Source: Escherichia coli O157:H7
GTDB lineage: Bacteria; Pseudomonadota; Gammaproteobacteria; Enterobacterales; Enterobacteriaceae
Assembly (NCBI RefSeq): GCF_013167455.1
Contig: NZ_CP038328.1
Direction: 5' to 3' (one strand)
DNA length: 64,000 nucleotides
Shown: one piece after another, positions 29,129 to 55,828 of the stretch
Layout of the letters: each line of letters begins with the position of its first letter
How positions within the stretch are numbered: the first letter of the stretch is position 1
Notes under the pieces: model-generated
Seen by the model: only the letters and a program-made list of their open reading frames with translations
Databases searched by the model: none
Told to the model about the DNA's origin: nothing
Translations under genes and position numbers: made by a program

Positions 29129-29380
29129 CTAACAGGATGCTCTGACTCGCAATTCATCCAGCAGTTTATCATTTCCCATAATGTCACTTACCCTCATCGG
29201 TAAAAAAATTGCCTTTCGACCATTACGATACATCATTGATTTTGGGGTTTCAGGGAAGTAATCCATTTCGACTATAACTGACAGGTCATCACGACGTATG
29301 ACTGCGTATTTGCAACTAAATAGTTTCTTTATTTTTTCCACGATGCCTCCGAGTTTATAAGTACAAACGGTTATATCCAC
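29129..29380 (-). CDS. Hypothetical protein
   Basis: 83-aa ORF in an AT-rich segment; no motif. Confidence 0.3.
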   Translation of the reverse strand: MDITVCTYKLGGIVEKIKKLFSCKYAVIRRDDLSVIVEMDYFPETPKSMMYRNGRKAIFLPMRVSDIMGNDKLLDELRVRASC

Positions 29381-29526
29381 ATAGAGACAAAAATATTAAT
29401 CTGAAAAATATTTATTTCACGCCGTATATTTGATTATTTAATGTGCAGGTACAATGACTTTTATTTTTTGTTGTGTATATAATCAAATATATGGTTATTT
29501 TTCACCCTGCGCATTCAGCGCGCAAC

Positions 29527-29548
29527 AAAAAACCCGCCGAAGCGGGTT
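29527..29548 (-). terminator. Intrinsic terminator ending the hok mRNA
   Basis: Hairpin aacccgccgaagcgggtt with T-run on the minus strand, about 70 nt after the hok stop. Confidence 0.6.
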
Positions 29549-29616
29549 AAGTGCGGGTGCGTTGAGGATGCCTGACACATCAGAGGTGGCGAGGGATTTC
29601 TCCCCCGCCAGGTCTC

Positions 29617-29772
29617 TTACTCCTCAGGTTCGTAAGCTGTGAAGACAGCGACCTCCGTCTGGCCGGTTCGGATTCGTACCTCGCAGAGGTCTTTCCTCGT
29701 TACCAGTGCCGTCACTATGACGGTTAAACAGATGACGATCAGGGCGACTAACATCGCCTTTTGCTGCTTCAT
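29617..29772 (-). CDS. hok: Hok-family type I toxin (small membrane killer protein)
   Basis: MKQQKAMLVALIVICLTVIVTALVTRKDLCEVRIRTGQTEVAVFTAYEPEE, near-identical to Hok/Gef family members as recalled; RBS AAGGAG; the in-frame upstream extension of the ORF is mok-like. Confidence 0.8.
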   Translation of the reverse strand: MKQQKAMLVALIVICLTVIVTALVTRKDLCEVRIRTGQTEVAVFTAYEPEE

Positions 29773-29951
29773 AGCCTGCTTCTCCTTGCCTTTCGGCACG
29801 TAAGAGGCTAACCTACGTTTGTGAAGCATAGATTGGGCCTCAGATTAATGTTAAGCGTCTTGCAGGACGCGTAATGTTAACTGGGGCTTTTCTCTATCTG
29901 CCTTTTGGTGTTCATGCCTGAGGCAGATAGCCTCAAGCACCCATTATGATT

Positions 29952-31073
29952 TTAACCAAAGTCTTTGTATCTATAAAGAGGCACAATATTACTCGATATA
30001 TCATCATGTGTGCGCCTTATTCCAAACATTTTGGAAACAAAGCGTTCCCTCACTCCCGACATATCCAGTATCTGCTTCCAAGAAGATATATCCAGCAATT
30101 CAACTGCACAGGAAAGTAAGCGAGGTTTTTCCTCAGGGATTAACTCATCCCCCATCTCTCCTTTAATCGTCCCTCTTTTATTTAGATGGATAAATCCCGT
30201 TCTCATTTGTTGTGGCGTAATCAGCCCCAAAACCGTAGCACGATAAATACACATGCGAAGACTGATTTTCCATCGTTCTTTGAAATTAATTAGTGCATTC
30301 CAGTCAAGATGCGATCCTCGCATTTTAGGAAATTCATTAACGAACGAAACTCTAGGTACAAGGAATGCGCTCGAAAAATAATCCGCATGATGTTCTGTAA
30401 TTTTATCCCCTGTTATAATCCCTTCATGCAAAACAAGATGCCCCAGTTCATGACCGAGATCTGAGCGAAATCGACACACACTCTTTTTCGCGGAATTTCT
30501 AATTATCAATGGGCGTTTACTATTAATAGTAAACGCATCAATACGATCATCCACGCCAGATACATGAGCAACAACAACCCCAATACTTTCCACGAAATTA
30601 ACCATTGAAGATATCGGTCCCAGCCCCAAACCCCAATACCTTCTACAGGCCTCGGCAATTCTTTCAATATCTTCATCGGAGTTCAAAGGTAATCCGGACG
30701 TATCAGGAAAGTTCAATTCTGGAAGAACTATTTCTGTTTCCAAACACTTTACAAACTGCTCCAAAATTTCAGCTCGAGCCAGAATACTATTAGTTAAGGA
30801 CTGCGTCCTTGATCTCTTGCTTCTGAAATGGCAGTTCTCGCTGTCTAATGGTGATTTCCTTCCAGTGAAGAAAAACGACTCTTTAACATCCAGATAATCT
30901 GCAAGAGCTGTCAACATCTGAGATGAAGGGGGATAACCACGCTCTAACTTGTTTATAAATTGCCGAGTCACCCCCAAAGCAGTAGCAAGCTCTTCGCCCG
31001 TAACCCCTTTAGCCTGACGAGCTAATTTTAAGCAGTCACCACGATAATTACCTATAGAATCAAATAGTTCCAT
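29952..31073 (-). CDS. HTH_XRE DNA-binding domain fused to ImmA/IrrE-family (M78) zinc metallopeptidase
   Basis: N-terminal HTH (LARQAKGVTGEELATALGVTRQFINKLERG) and HEXXH site (LGHELGHLVLHE); start ambiguous between 31073 and 31109; AT-rich. Confidence 0.7.
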   Translation of the reverse strand: MELFDSIGNYRGDCLKLARQAKGVTGEELATALGVTRQFINKLERGYPPSSQMLTALADYLDVKESFFFTGRKSPLDSENCHFRSKRSRTQSLTNSILARAEILEQFVKCLETEIVLPELNFPDTSGLPLNSDEDIERIAEACRRYWGLGLGPISSMVNFVESIGVVVAHVSGVDDRIDAFTINSKRPLIIRNSAKKSVCRFRSDLGHELGHLVLHEGIITGDKITEHHADYFSSAFLVPRVSFVNEFPKMRGSHLDWNALINFKERWKISLRMCIYRATVLGLITPQQMRTGFIHLNKRGTIKGEMGDELIPEEKPRLLSCAVELLDISSWKQILDMSGVRERFVSKMFGIRRTHDDISSNIVPLYRYKDFG

Positions 31074-31710
31074 ATTTATCACTATCTGCTTTTTTCGCAT
31101 TCTTAACACGCCGCTGCAAATTCAGCGGTGGTGTTTCCACGGCCTCTGGCAATACGTCAGTATTAGCTGCTTGTACTGGAGCATGGACTTTAGACACCAA
31201 TTCGTATCTACTCACTACATTATTTGATGAATCAAAACCTATCAGGGCTAAAAGCCACGTTGGAGGTTCAATATCTTCATCTTTTTTATTTGCAGATGGT
31301 AATTTTTCAGCCAGAACACGCCATGTAACATCATGTTCAAAATTAACATCATCTTCAAAAAGAGATAACTGACGACACTCAACATCATTTTTACATAAGC
31401 GATGTTTCTTTTTTGGTGAATCCAGTTTATCGGTCACAAACTGTAACGGCACCCTGTTCAGGGTAAACACAAAATTCAGAGGTGTTGAAAGAATCGCCAC
31501 TCCTTTGAGTTTTTTATGATTTTTTACAAGAAAGTTTTTTATCCATCCATAGGCCCTACATCCATTAATCCAGTTATCATCATACTCATGGCGATGGAAC
31601 CATAATTCGCCAAGTACGTTAGCAAATTGCTGAAGAAGATTGATAACAGATTTTTCATCCAAACAAGGATTGATTTCAAAACACGGTTGGAGATTCTGTT
31701 CAGACGGCAT
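31060..31710 (-). CDS. Uncharacterised protein, upstream partner of the HTH-peptidase gene
   Basis: 216 aa from Met MPSEQNLQPC... with RBS GAGGG; stop overlaps the next gene start; no motif recognised. Confidence 0.5.
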   Translation of the reverse strand: MPSEQNLQPCFEINPCLDEKSVINLLQQFANVLGELWFHRHEYDDNWINGCRAYGWIKNFLVKNHKKLKGVAILSTPLNFVFTLNRVPLQFVTDKLDSPKKKHRLCKNDVECRQLSLFEDDVNFEHDVTWRVLAEKLPSANKKDEDIEPPTWLLALIGFDSSNNVVSRYELVSKVHAPVQAANTDVLPEAVETPPLNLQRRVKNAKKADSDKYGTI

Positions 31711-31864
31711 AAGGTATCCCTCTCTCTTAAAACTCCGCTCATCTTTACGCAAAATTTTATTTTTGTAAACCTAATCTTTAGGGGATTTCACGAATTCGTC
31801 AACCAGTCGAACAAACTTTAACCACAATACATATTTATCTACATTGATATGTGTATCGCTAACA

Positions 31865-36569: not shown

Positions 36570-37085
36570 ACCATTTATTGGATTAATTCAATATTCTTGC
36601 TGTAGGGGTATAGCCGAGGCCACCAAAGCCCGGAGGTGGTGAAATAAAACCGGGCACAACACGAAGGCGCATTTCCGATATCCATAAAGAGTCGGTCTTG
36701 TCTGTTAAATTTAAATGGTGGGAGTGCGCCTCCGGTTGTAAATAACGACATTGCTGTGTGTAGTCTTGGCGGCATCAGTTCTACTCCGTGGCTGCCCTGC
36801 CGCCCCTTTTTAAAGTGAATTTTGTGATGCGGTGAATGCGGCTGAGCGCACGCGGCACAGTTAAAAGCATCAGTGTTATGGGTGGATTATCCGGCGTTAA
36901 TTGTTAACTGGTTAACGTCACCTGGAGGCACCAGGCACCGCATCAACAAAGTTCACTTCAGTGATGAAAGGTGAGAGAAAATGTTGGATGTAGCTATTGA
37001 AAACCAGAACGGGTGGAATTATAGTGCACCTGCACCTCATAAAACGGGTGCCGGGATTTGCACCCCGATGATCACTAGAGCGCAT

Positions 37086-37109
37086 AACCGCGCCAAAGCG
37101 GTTTTTTTA
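37086..37109 (+). terminator. Intrinsic terminator inside the noncoding region upstream of rha
   Basis: Hairpin aaccgcgccaaagcggtt plus T7. Confidence 0.5.
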
Positions 37110-37274
37110 TGCGTAAAGCGCAGCCACATTCAGATTATGGTGGGGCGTATGGGGCCGTTTTCGGGCGGGCCGGATTCTCTAGTGACCGGTAGTGCAAACC
37201 CTGTACGTCTCACCACCCATGAGATTTGCACCTCCGGTGGTGAGTTTACCAACTTATCACTAGAGGCTGCCATC

Positions 37275-50051: not shown

Positions 50052-50145
50052 ACCGGCGCAGAGGAGACAATGCCGGATTTAAGACGCGGATGCACTGCTG
50101 TGTGTACTGTAGAGTCTGGCGGATGTCGACAGACTCTATTTTTTT
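50052..50145 (+). ncRNA. mcaS: McaS small RNA
   Basis: ACCGGCGCAGAGGAGACAATGCCGG...GTGTGTACTGTAGAGTCTGGCGGATGTCGACAGACTCTATTTTTTT matches McaS as recalled, with terminator; between smrA and abgR. Confidence 0.55.
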
Positions 50146-50153
50146 ATGCAGTT

Positions 50154-54851: not shown

Positions 54852-55178
54852 ATGACTAAAAATACTCGTTTTTCCCCCGAAGTCCGTCAGCGGGCGATTC
54901 GTATGGTTCTGGAAAGTCAGGATGAATATGACTCACAGTGGGCGGCAATTTGTTCCATTGCCCCAAAGATTGGCTGTACGCCGGAGACTCTGCGTGTCTG
55001 GGTTCGCCAGCATGAGCGGGATACCGGGGGCGGTGATGGTGGGCTCACCAGCGCTGAACGTCAGCGTCTGAAAGAGCTGGAACGTGAAAATCGTGAACTG
55101 CGCCGCAGTAACGATATCCTTCGCCAGGCTTCCGCTTATTTTGCGAAGGCGGAGTTCGACCGCCTCTGGAAAAAATGA
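54852..55178 (+). CDS. IS3-family transposase OrfA
   Basis: [41 protein letters not shown]... HTH plus leucine-zipper region. Confidence 0.85.
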
Positions 55179-55828
55179 TGCCACTGCTGGATAAGCTGCG
55201 TGAGCAGTACGGGGTCGGACCGGTATGCAGCGAACTGCATATTGCCCCGTCAACGTATTACCATTGTCAGCAACAGCGACATCATCCGGATAAACGCAGT
55301 GCCCGTGCGCAGCACGACGACTGGCTGAAGAGAGAGATACAGCGCGTATACGATGAAAATCATCAGGTGTACGGTGTGCGTAAAGTCTGGCGTCAGTTGT
55401 TACGGGAAGGAATCAGGGTGGCCAGATGTACAGTGGCACGTCTCATGGCGGTTATGGGACTTGCCGGTGTTCTCCGGGGTAAATGGGCCCGTCGTCCGTC
55501 TGGCACCATCCATCACAGCGATAAAGGCTCTCAGTATGTGTCACTGGCCTATACGGAGCGACTAAAAGAAGCCGGATTACTGGCATCAACAGGGAGTACA
55601 GGCGACTCGTATGACAACGCGATGGCTGAGAGCATCAATGGTCTTTACAAAGCGGAGGTAATACACCGTAAGAGCTGGAAAAACCGTGCAGAAGTGGAAC
55701 TGGCCACACTAACGTGGGTGGACTGGTATAACAATCGACGATTGCTGGGAAGGCTGGGCCATACTCCTCCGGCAGAAGCAGAAAAAGCTTATTATGCTTC
55801 CATCGGAAACGATGATCTGGCAGCCTGA
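55175..55828 (+). CDS. IS3-family transposase OrfB, internally deleted
   Basis: 217 aa; retains HSDKGSQY and [11 protein letters not shown] blocks but lacks the upstream segment that should carry the first catalytic Asp. Confidence 0.7.

Follow-up and report, generated by a model that had tools for sequence, protein, structure and literature searches.

The minus strand of an Escherichia coli O157:H7 prophage carries a small hok-type reading frame, and the question it raises is whether this frame belongs to a complete type I toxin–antitoxin module that can still act or is the leftover of one. We analyzed the locus within a window of 64,000 nucleotides (contig NZ_CP038328.1 of assembly GCF_013167455.1), where an initial annotation made from the letters alone had described an intact hok-type locus, and all of the defining RNA and protein elements are indeed found on the minus strand. 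We conclude that positions 29527–29942 of this strand form a complete hok/mok/sok type I toxin–antitoxin module of the hokD/hokW clade, which is probably functional (at a probability of roughly 0.77). Every sequence element of the module is present, intact, and energetically sound, and is identical or near-identical to its counterpart in tested loci; its transcription, processing, Sok expression, toxicity, and biological role in the prophage of the window are what we infer, rather than observe.

The module is real but ordinary, as it occurs in about three-quarters of complete E. coli genomes and the 93.5%-identical hokW/sokW has already been characterized experimentally. The initial annotation set the copy apart from its K-12 relatives for being intact, and the contrast is correct as far as it goes: K-12 hokD is without the leader, the mok start, and the Sok gene, all of which the window copy has. 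We find no support for treating the copy as remarkable on that account, since copies outside K-12 are normally intact and experiments have already been done on a near-identical one. The finding itself has no novelty: published work already covers the family, its mechanism and its prophage enrichment, as well as the difference between defective K-12 copies and complete wild-strain copies. The coordinates of the individual features are collected in Table 1.

Table 1. Features of the hok/mok/sok module, in positions of the window; nt, position in the hok/mok mRNA
Feature	Coordinates	Strand	Sequence or size	Remarks
Candidate hok/mok promoter	29949–29977	−	TTTATA-17-TAAAAT	Consensus scan 9/12; presumed activity
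Full-length hok/mok mRNA	29527–29942	−	~416 nt	+1 at G29942, begins GGGUGCUUGAGG; start of the Rfam match
tac, nt 1–12	29931–29942	−	GGGUGCUUGAGG	12 bp with fbi in MFE; alternatively 7 bp with ucb
Metastable 5' hairpin, nt 3–13 / nt 19–29	29914–29940	−	11 bp	MFE of first 30–52 nt −19.6 kcal/mol
Leader hairpin, nt 13–22 / nt 40–49	29894–29930	−		Rfam helix 1; contains tatctgcc/ggcagata
ucb (mok anti-SD), nt 54–60	29883–29889	−	AAGCCCC	Closed form: pairs mok SD (nt 56–60/102–106); open form: pairs tac
mok-SD/anti-SD hairpin, nt 56–106	29837–29887	−		Tip is the 16-nt palindrome gcgtcttgcaggacgc, 29855–29870; on the plus strand, Sok terminator stem
dcb, nt 135–139	29804–29808	−	GCCUC	Complementary to GAGGC; downstream partner of mok SD, assigned by analogy
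mok frame	29617–29829	−	70 aa	In frame with hok; SD GAGG at 29838–29841, 8 nt upstream
hok toxin gene	29617–29772	−	51 aa, MKQQKAMLVALIVICLTVIVTALVTRKDLCEVRIRTGQTEVAVFTAYEPEE	SD AAGGAG at 29782–29787, 9 nt before ATG
UACG TadA editing motif	29631–29634	−	UACG	Tyr47 codon; edited A would be 29633, Tyr to Cys
3' UTR hairpin, nt 333–356	29587–29610	−		Equivalent to R1 hairpin GGCGGGCGCAGGCCCGCC, which ends the processed active mRNA
fbi, nt 376–388	29555–29567	−	CCUCAACGCACCC	Pairs tac; duplex −21.5 kcal/mol
Intrinsic terminator	29525–29548	−	AACCCGCTTCGGCGGGTT + T-run	7-bp stem (29531–29548), UUCG loop, U-run
Sok promoter	29786–29814	+	−35 TTGCCT (29786–29791), 17-nt spacer, −10 TAACCT (29809–29814)	Identical to sokW
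Sok antisense RNA (predicted)	29821–29891	+	~71 nt (71–75)	Coordinates carried over from the 933W sokW misc_RNA annotation

Toxin, mok frame, and extent of the transcript

The Hok reading frame is complete, as had been claimed. Its product covers 42 of the 42 positions of the Pfam family HOK_GEF (PF01848) with E=2.1e-23, and the mok/hok frame matches PHROG 251 ('MokW-like host killing') with E=2e-32; the score against the NCBIfam Hok subfamily HMM is 49 bits, under the curated cut-off of 73. The identical protein, WP_000813269.1, carries the PGAP name HokD, and window Hok is separated from K-12 HokD by a single substitution, I9V, at a position where HokC also has Val. No inactivating change was found in the window copy. 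Of 45 Hok homologues tested, 42 were toxic, with HokD among the controls whose toxicity was already in the literature (10.1101/2025.08.07.668861), and HokW, five residues apart from window Hok, is toxic experimentally (PMC8621323). The UACG motif at the Tyr47 codon is kept in all 50 unique relatives, and K-12 hokD is reported to be edited at this very site (PMC5630033, PMC12214031).

The strong ribosome-binding site ascribed to hok corresponds to the AAGGAG of Table 1, and the mok-like in-frame extension proposed upstream of it is a 70-residue open reading frame laid out like the annotated mokW of 933W, mok of Rac-SA53, and mokC. The in-frame arrangement was considered as a possible oddity and rejected: mokW and mokC are in frame too, while R1 mok, mokB, and the P1-like copy are out of frame.

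The original end coordinate of 29900 was too short: 42 nt at the 5' end of the mRNA fall outside it, among them tac and half of one repeat. The corrected transcribed extent is 29527–29942, and a promoter-like site reaches 29977. Homology to hokW, to Rac-SA53, and to 80 loci on viral contigs starts at G29942 and stops at fbi or the terminator, and the flanks diverge. The candidate −10 element lies 6 nt before the +1, in register with the TAGAAT of 933W and Rac-SA53; a start from an alternative −10, CATAAT, would remove tac. Most relatives have TTTGCG-17-TAGAAT as the hok promoter, unlike the window copy, where the stop codon of the upstream gene, RmrA, is 10 nt from the hok +1, so that the 3' end of the RmrA coding sequence replaces the usual hok −35. 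At the other end, the intrinsic terminator described downstream of hok was recovered. K-12 hokD shares it, and it is missing from hokW, Rac-SA53, and R1. A stable UUCG-loop terminator located 3' of fbi might slow the 3' trimming that activation needs.

Folding of the messenger and its antisense RNA

The Rfam model RF01794 ('sok') has a single match in the whole window, at 29767–29942 on the minus strand, which spans the full model (1–157) with 120.1 bits (E=1e-28; gathering threshold 59 bits). The consensus of this model ends in the hok start codon, which indicates that it describes the sense-strand leader of the hok mRNA and that the antitoxin lies opposite; automated annotation that follows the name of the model would thus misplace the antitoxin strand. 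Folding of the locus, put forward in the initial annotation as a check, gave an MFE of −174.9 kcal/mol for the 416-nt RNA, compared to −127.7 ± 5.2 kcal/mol for shuffled sequences (z = −9.0), and 0 of 100 shuffled sequences folded as well.

The full-length RNA is closed by 12 bp between tac and fbi in both the MFE and the centroid structures. The same pairing is found in hokW, Rac-SA53, PPompW, and the P1-like copy, and an analogous one in the R1-type locus. Behind this closure, nt 56–66 pair with nt 95–106, and the GCCCC of ucb covers the GAGGC of the mok Shine–Dalgarno sequence; further downstream, the hok start region (nt 167–180) is paired with nt 294–308 in the MFE. The Rfam consensus has no counterpart to the 16-nt tip of the mok hairpin. 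The idea that this tip is an unusual insertion was considered and dismissed, the tip being standard in the hokD/hokW clade and present in all relatives of that clade except PPompW. The roles of the hok mRNA elements, including ucb and the closed-to-open switch, were defined for R1 hok/sok, where dcb likewise lies inside the Sok promoter region (PMC9841398).

The initial annotation had also pointed to two inverted repeats in the leader as consistent with hok mRNA fold-back elements. Both repeats are present (29855–29870 and 29896–29903/29923–29930), but neither is the fold-back inhibitory element, which is not in the upstream leader at all: fbi lies downstream of hok, at 29555–29567.

Constrained folding describes the energetics of the switch. 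The price of forcing the tac/ucb pairing falls from 13.0 kcal/mol in the full-length RNA to 0.1 kcal/mol when the RNA ends at nt 357, just past the 3' hairpin; the R1-type control gave 11.6 and 2.0 kcal/mol for its full-length and shortened forms. In the MFE of the RNA ending at nt 357 the open tac/ucb form is not chosen spontaneously, the two forms being isoenergetic by constrained folding, which is also the case in the R1-type control. In nascent folding, the tac/ucb stem appears at 62 nt. Across relatives, these helices vary little. The tac element is invariant among 50 unique relatives from viral contigs, and 100% of the cells of the metastable 5' hairpin are paired. A covariation test on these 50 relatives found the tac/fbi, tac/ucb, and metastable stems nearly invariant, with 0 compensatory pairs among sequences that are too similar for such a test. 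The few double changes fall only in the leader, sokT, and 3' hairpins and in the terminator; they include pair 15/47 of the leader hairpin, where a compensatory A-U to G-C change occurs in 6 unique relatives.

The Sok promoter had been expected in the upstream leader and instead lies inside mok, as its identity to the sokW promoter indicates. The assignment is based on this identity and on homology to R1, where the counterpart is TTGCGC-17-TATCCT. A generic promoter scan missed the site, because TAACCT fits only 3 of 6 consensus positions. In the 'pro-less' construct of sokW, the change of TAACCT to GAGCCG (deduced from primers YO-421/422) abolished antitoxin activity (PMC8621323). The predicted Sok consists of a single-stranded 5' tail of 9–13 nt whose sequence is complementary to the start of mok, followed by a long hairpin and then a U-rich tail, with a folding energy of −30.7 kcal/mol (z = −4.7). 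Within the module, strong variation is limited to the Sok 5' tail together with mok codons 2–5. A common Sok-tail allele among relatives is CCATATCTATGCTCTACACACG. Of the 507 genomes with the allele of the window, most have a single copy of it and none has more than 2. No clean rule of one copy per Sok-tail allele per genome emerged, as three contigs of one IMG genome share an allele other than that of the window.

Prophage setting, conservation, and rival readings

The module shares its strand with the early-right operon and has the replication genes on one side and the NinB/Q antiterminator genes on the other. Its neighbors downstream of the transcript are rem, a NinB/Orf homologue, DUF1364, and DUF1133. 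The location of the locus in a prophage nin region was correctly called, since the DUF1367 protein matches NinB/Orf (PHROG 319, E=8e-70). An identical region in O157:H7 strain ECP19-598 is annotated by PGAP as a Rac-like lambdoid prophage, in which recET, kilR, a repressor pair, ydaT, the replication genes (ydaV), DUF1627, DUF977, and a two-gene insert are followed by hokD, a rem-like ORF, DUF1367, DUF1364, DUF1133, tRNA, and lysis genes. The insert, which borders hok on its upstream side, consists of the RosmerTA pair (RmrA, E=6e-107; RmrT, E=2e-18), and the exact RosmerTA–hok junction is common to only about 120 genomes. No terminator was found between the RosmerTA genes and hok. The orientation of hok relative to its upstream gene, judged in 77 loci by the crude measure of the longest open frame, is the same in 39 and opposite in 38.

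Of 5426 complete E. coli genomes, 4011 contain at least 80% of the 416-nt module; identity is 95–99% in most cases, with a median of 2 places per genome and up to 9. Among the 80 viral-contig loci, the 51-residue ORF is intact in every one, and sequence entropy is close to 0 inside the module and about 1.3 bits just outside the +1 and the terminator. Conservation therefore ends where the mRNA ends, which identifies the transcript itself as the mobile, conserved unit. A published catalogue already covers how Hok is enriched in prophages, that HokD is toxic, and how the element is distributed (10.1101/2025.08.07.668861). Decay can be recognized in the chromosomal copy of strain NWU_4, whose best tac/fbi duplex reaches −13.3 kcal/mol compared to −21.5 kcal/mol in the window, and whose hok Shine–Dalgarno sequence has changed from AAGGAG to AAGAAG; decay marks of this type were looked for in the window copy and none was found.

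The main competitor of a functional module is one that is structurally intact but physiologically silent, transcribed yet permanently off and hitch-hiking with the prophage. It owes this rank to the chromosomal hokA, hokB, and hokC, which showed neither post-segregational killing nor activation by rifampicin, according to the account of Pedersen and Gerdes (1999) given in 10.1101/2025.08.07.668861. The window copy has features of its own that would fit silence: the strong terminator hairpin located 3' of fbi could keep exonucleases from activating the mRNA, the −35 of the hok promoter is non-standard (9 of 12 consensus positions overall), and genomes with up to 9 copies, some sharing a Sok-tail allele, could allow Sok acting in trans to silence any one of them. 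We nevertheless regard silence as unlikely, since conservation across 80 loci is far higher within the module, untranslated parts included, than in its flanks, with no ORF broken among them, since hokW/sokW, at 93.5% identity, is active in the prophage to which it belongs (PMC8621323), and since one chromosomal copy of R1 hok is lethal without Sok (PMC9841398).

A decaying pseudo-locus that resembles K-12 hokD, with a leftover toxin ORF and lost regulation, is contradicted by the alignments and is far less probable still. In its favor, PGAP, which labels the coding sequence of the E. coli copies hokD, marks this sequence alone at the window locus, missing both mok and Sok; K-12 hokD and some chromosomal copies such as NWU_4 are in fact truncated or mutated. 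However, the window copy retains the 5' 156 nt that K-12 has lost, and its tac/fbi pair, ucb, both Shine–Dalgarno sequences, both start codons, Sok promoter, and terminator are intact. As for a chance resemblance of an ORF and some hairpins to a hok locus, we give it no weight: the small size of the ORF is all that speaks for it, against the Pfam (E=2e-23) and Rfam (E=1e-28) matches, a folding z of −9, and thousands of homologous loci.

Proposed circuit and comparison with known systems

A functional module in the window would most likely work by the canonical circuit of R1 hok/sok. A weak promoter would yield a stable mRNA of about 416 nt, whose 5' end would be held in the metastable hairpin during synthesis. 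In the completed mRNA, tac would pair with fbi and ucb would lock the mok Shine–Dalgarno sequence, so that the molecule would escape both translation and binding by Sok. As its 3' end is slowly trimmed back to the hairpin at nt 333–356, fbi would be lost; the tac/ucb pairing could then free the ribosome-binding site of mok, whose translation would drive that of hok. The short-lived Sok, made from the plus strand (29821–29891), would pair with the mok start region of the processed mRNA, leading to repression and cleavage. Should Sok synthesis stop, the stored mRNA would yield Hok, a small inner-membrane peptide, and the membrane would collapse. The trigger may be prophage induction, as in the RecA-dependent case of hokW; in principle it could also be loss of the element or the shut-off of host transcription by an infecting phage.

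The evidence for a role in the hokD/hokW clade comes from hokW/sokW, its only direct case. [quoted passage not shown] 2021, PMC8621323), with lysis about 40 min earlier and a two-fold increase in phage release (PMC8621323). Prophage retention and the exclusion of other phages are possible roles of the window module. That hok is oriented like the early operon, with no terminator upstream of it, suggests a further scenario, in which antiterminated read-through upon induction could meet the Sok promoter head-on and silence Sok by transcriptional interference. Read-through from the early operon could also produce 5'-extended hok RNAs, in which tac is no longer at the 5' end. In addition, the variable Sok 5' tail and mok codons 2–5 may set a Sok recognition that is specific to each paralogue. 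Both readings, read-through silencing and paralogue-specific tails, are speculative, and we regard them as unlikely. If true, read-through silencing would supply a reason for the RecA-dependent loss of Sok, for which the hokW study offered none, and hok would then serve to help lysis at the time of induction, not as an addiction module; paralogue-specific tails would mean that co-resident prophages give each other no protection.

As a discovery, the window module matters little, a 93.5%-identical phage copy having already been dissected. Its position next to the RosmerTA defence pair makes it a convenient natural case in which to weigh lysis timing against prophage retention and phage exclusion.

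The closest characterized system is hokW/mokW/sokW (933W, Sp5/VT2-Sakai), which shares 93.5% nucleotide identity with the window copy over module nt 1–398. In both, tac, fbi, ucb, the Shine–Dalgarno sequences, the Sok promoter, and the 16-nt tip are identical, mok is a 70-residue in-frame ORF, and the carrier is a lambdoid prophage. The five residues that distinguish HokW from window Hok are I9V and four positions at the C-terminus. The hokW locus differs in its allele of the Sok 5' tail and mok codons 2–5, in its upstream promoter sequence, in having no terminator after fbi, and in its neighborhood: it adjoins ead/Ea22-like genes, whereas the window copy is in the nin region.

K-12 hokD (relF), in the Qin cryptic prophage, is 98.8% identical over nt 157–415 and has the same terminator and the same downstream rem. 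It is without nt 1–156, which comprise tac, the leader, ucb, the mok start, and the Sok gene with its −10, and has relBE there instead. The breakpoint coincides with the Sok −35, and relE occupies everything upstream of the hok Shine–Dalgarno sequence. Our alignment agrees with earlier publications, in which K-12 hokD is described as having lost its regulatory parts (PMC5630033, PMC12214031). The mok/hok loci of Rac-SA53 (KU052037) and phage Rac (MN652886) are 94–95% identical to the window copy and are followed by rem, a NinB-like gene (irsA), ybcO, and Q. The upstream neighbor in these Rac phages is other than the RosmerTA pair of the window, and Rac-SA53 has no terminator after fbi.

The more distant prototype is R1 hok/sok (parB), whose Hok is reported as 44% identical to HokW (PMC8621323). 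In R1, tac, the metastable hairpin, ucb, the mok Shine–Dalgarno sequence, dcb, and the Sok promoter follow each other in the same order as in the window, and the order continues alike through the hok Shine–Dalgarno sequence, the 3' hairpin, and fbi; the energetic switch is comparable. R1 mok is out of frame, with an offset of 58 nt (PMC9841398), whereas window mok is in frame at 57 nt; the Sok terminator hairpin of the window has the extra 16-nt tip, and fbi is followed by an explicit terminator. The carrier of the R1 system is a plasmid, and that of the window module is a prophage.

Flanking genes and signals of hok

The hok gene, which encodes the toxin of the hok/mok/sok type I toxin-antitoxin module in the prophage nin region, lies directly downstream of RosmerTA, an anti-phage defence pair. 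The larger protein, RmrA, scores 162 bits against the NCBIfam spr1629-family model, under its cut-off of 335. Transcription of hok is placed to begin 10 nt from the RmrA stop, and the candidate -35 element of its promoter is provided by RmrA. This RmrA-hok junction is rare, occurring in about 120 of the 5426 complete E. coli genomes.

At the other end of the gene, the hok 3' UTR, comprising a hairpin and the terminator, matches the isrK model at 30.5 bits (E=1e-4), below the threshold of 50. The score probably reflects a two-hairpin resemblance; a full isrK match is found elsewhere in the window. The AT-rich spacer between hok and the following Rem-like ORF contains a good promoter-like site directed toward the hok 3' end, antisense to the terminator and to fbi, the fold-back inhibitory element near the 3' end of hok mRNA. 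A Rem-like ORF after hok is an order common to K-12 Qin and the Rac-type phage Rac-SA53; the PGAP version of this ORF is shorter, at 70 aa.

Features in and around the hok module and regulatory RNAs elsewhere in the window
Feature	Position	Strand	Description
RosmerTA pair	29952-31752	-	two genes
RmrA	within 29952-31752	-	385 aa; HTH and ImmA-type peptidase; PADLOC E=6e-107
RmrT	within 29952-31752	-	230 aa; E=2e-18
Sok 5' tail and mok codons 2-5	29817-29836		mRNA nt about 107-125
RF01794 match	29767-29942	-	
TadA motif, hok Tyr47	29631-29634	-	A that would be edited, 29633
hok 3' UTR	29527-29608	-	hairpin and terminator
Promoter-like site	29454-29483	+	ATGACT-18-TATAAT; 10/12, consensus match only
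Rem-like ORF	29129-29380	-	83 aa; PHROG 1813 (function unknown), E=4e-35
isrK, full match	37032-37108		
AgvB, STnc100	27076-27476		Rfam; beside tRNA-like match
DicF, isrK, C4 antisense RNA	36755-37220		Rfam
RalA	42069-42247		Rfam; antitoxin of RalR
FnrS, McaS	46557-46674, 50052-50147		Rfam; spans listed jointly
ALIL pseudoknot	55133-55249		Rfam; cis-regulatory family

Sok and other regulatory RNAs

The Rfam family RF01794, although labelled 'sok antitoxin', matches the sense strand of hok mRNA, and the 3' end of its consensus is the hok AUG. The true Sok strand gives only a shifted match of 24.6 bits, and automated annotation from this family would put Sok on the wrong strand. The remaining RNA families in the table are Rfam matches over threshold elsewhere in the window; the prophage therefore holds several regulatory sRNAs in addition to at least two RNAs of type I toxin-antitoxin systems, Sok and RalA.

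Variation, decay and conservation of the module

The module is nearly invariant except for one segment, the 5' tail of Sok together with codons 2-5 of mok, which has about ten alleles among 80 related viral-contig loci. The allele of the window is present in 507 genomes and is nearly always single-copy, whereas hok loci reach up to nine per genome. A specificity rule for these alleles is unproven because one IMG genome holds three copies of a different allele.

A decayed chromosomal relative in E. coli NWU_4 (L009, 301-708) serves as a negative control for the term 'intact': tac, the pairing 5' end of the mRNA, reads GGGGGC and fbi is mismatched, with AAGAAG as the hok Shine-Dalgarno sequence and a degraded terminator.

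The hok Tyr47 codon is UAC followed by G, a TadA A-to-I editing motif conserved in all 50 unique relatives. Editing by TadA at the same motif changes Tyr to Cys in K-12 hokC, hokD and hokE, with a level of ~6% in hokD (PMC5630033, PMC12214031).
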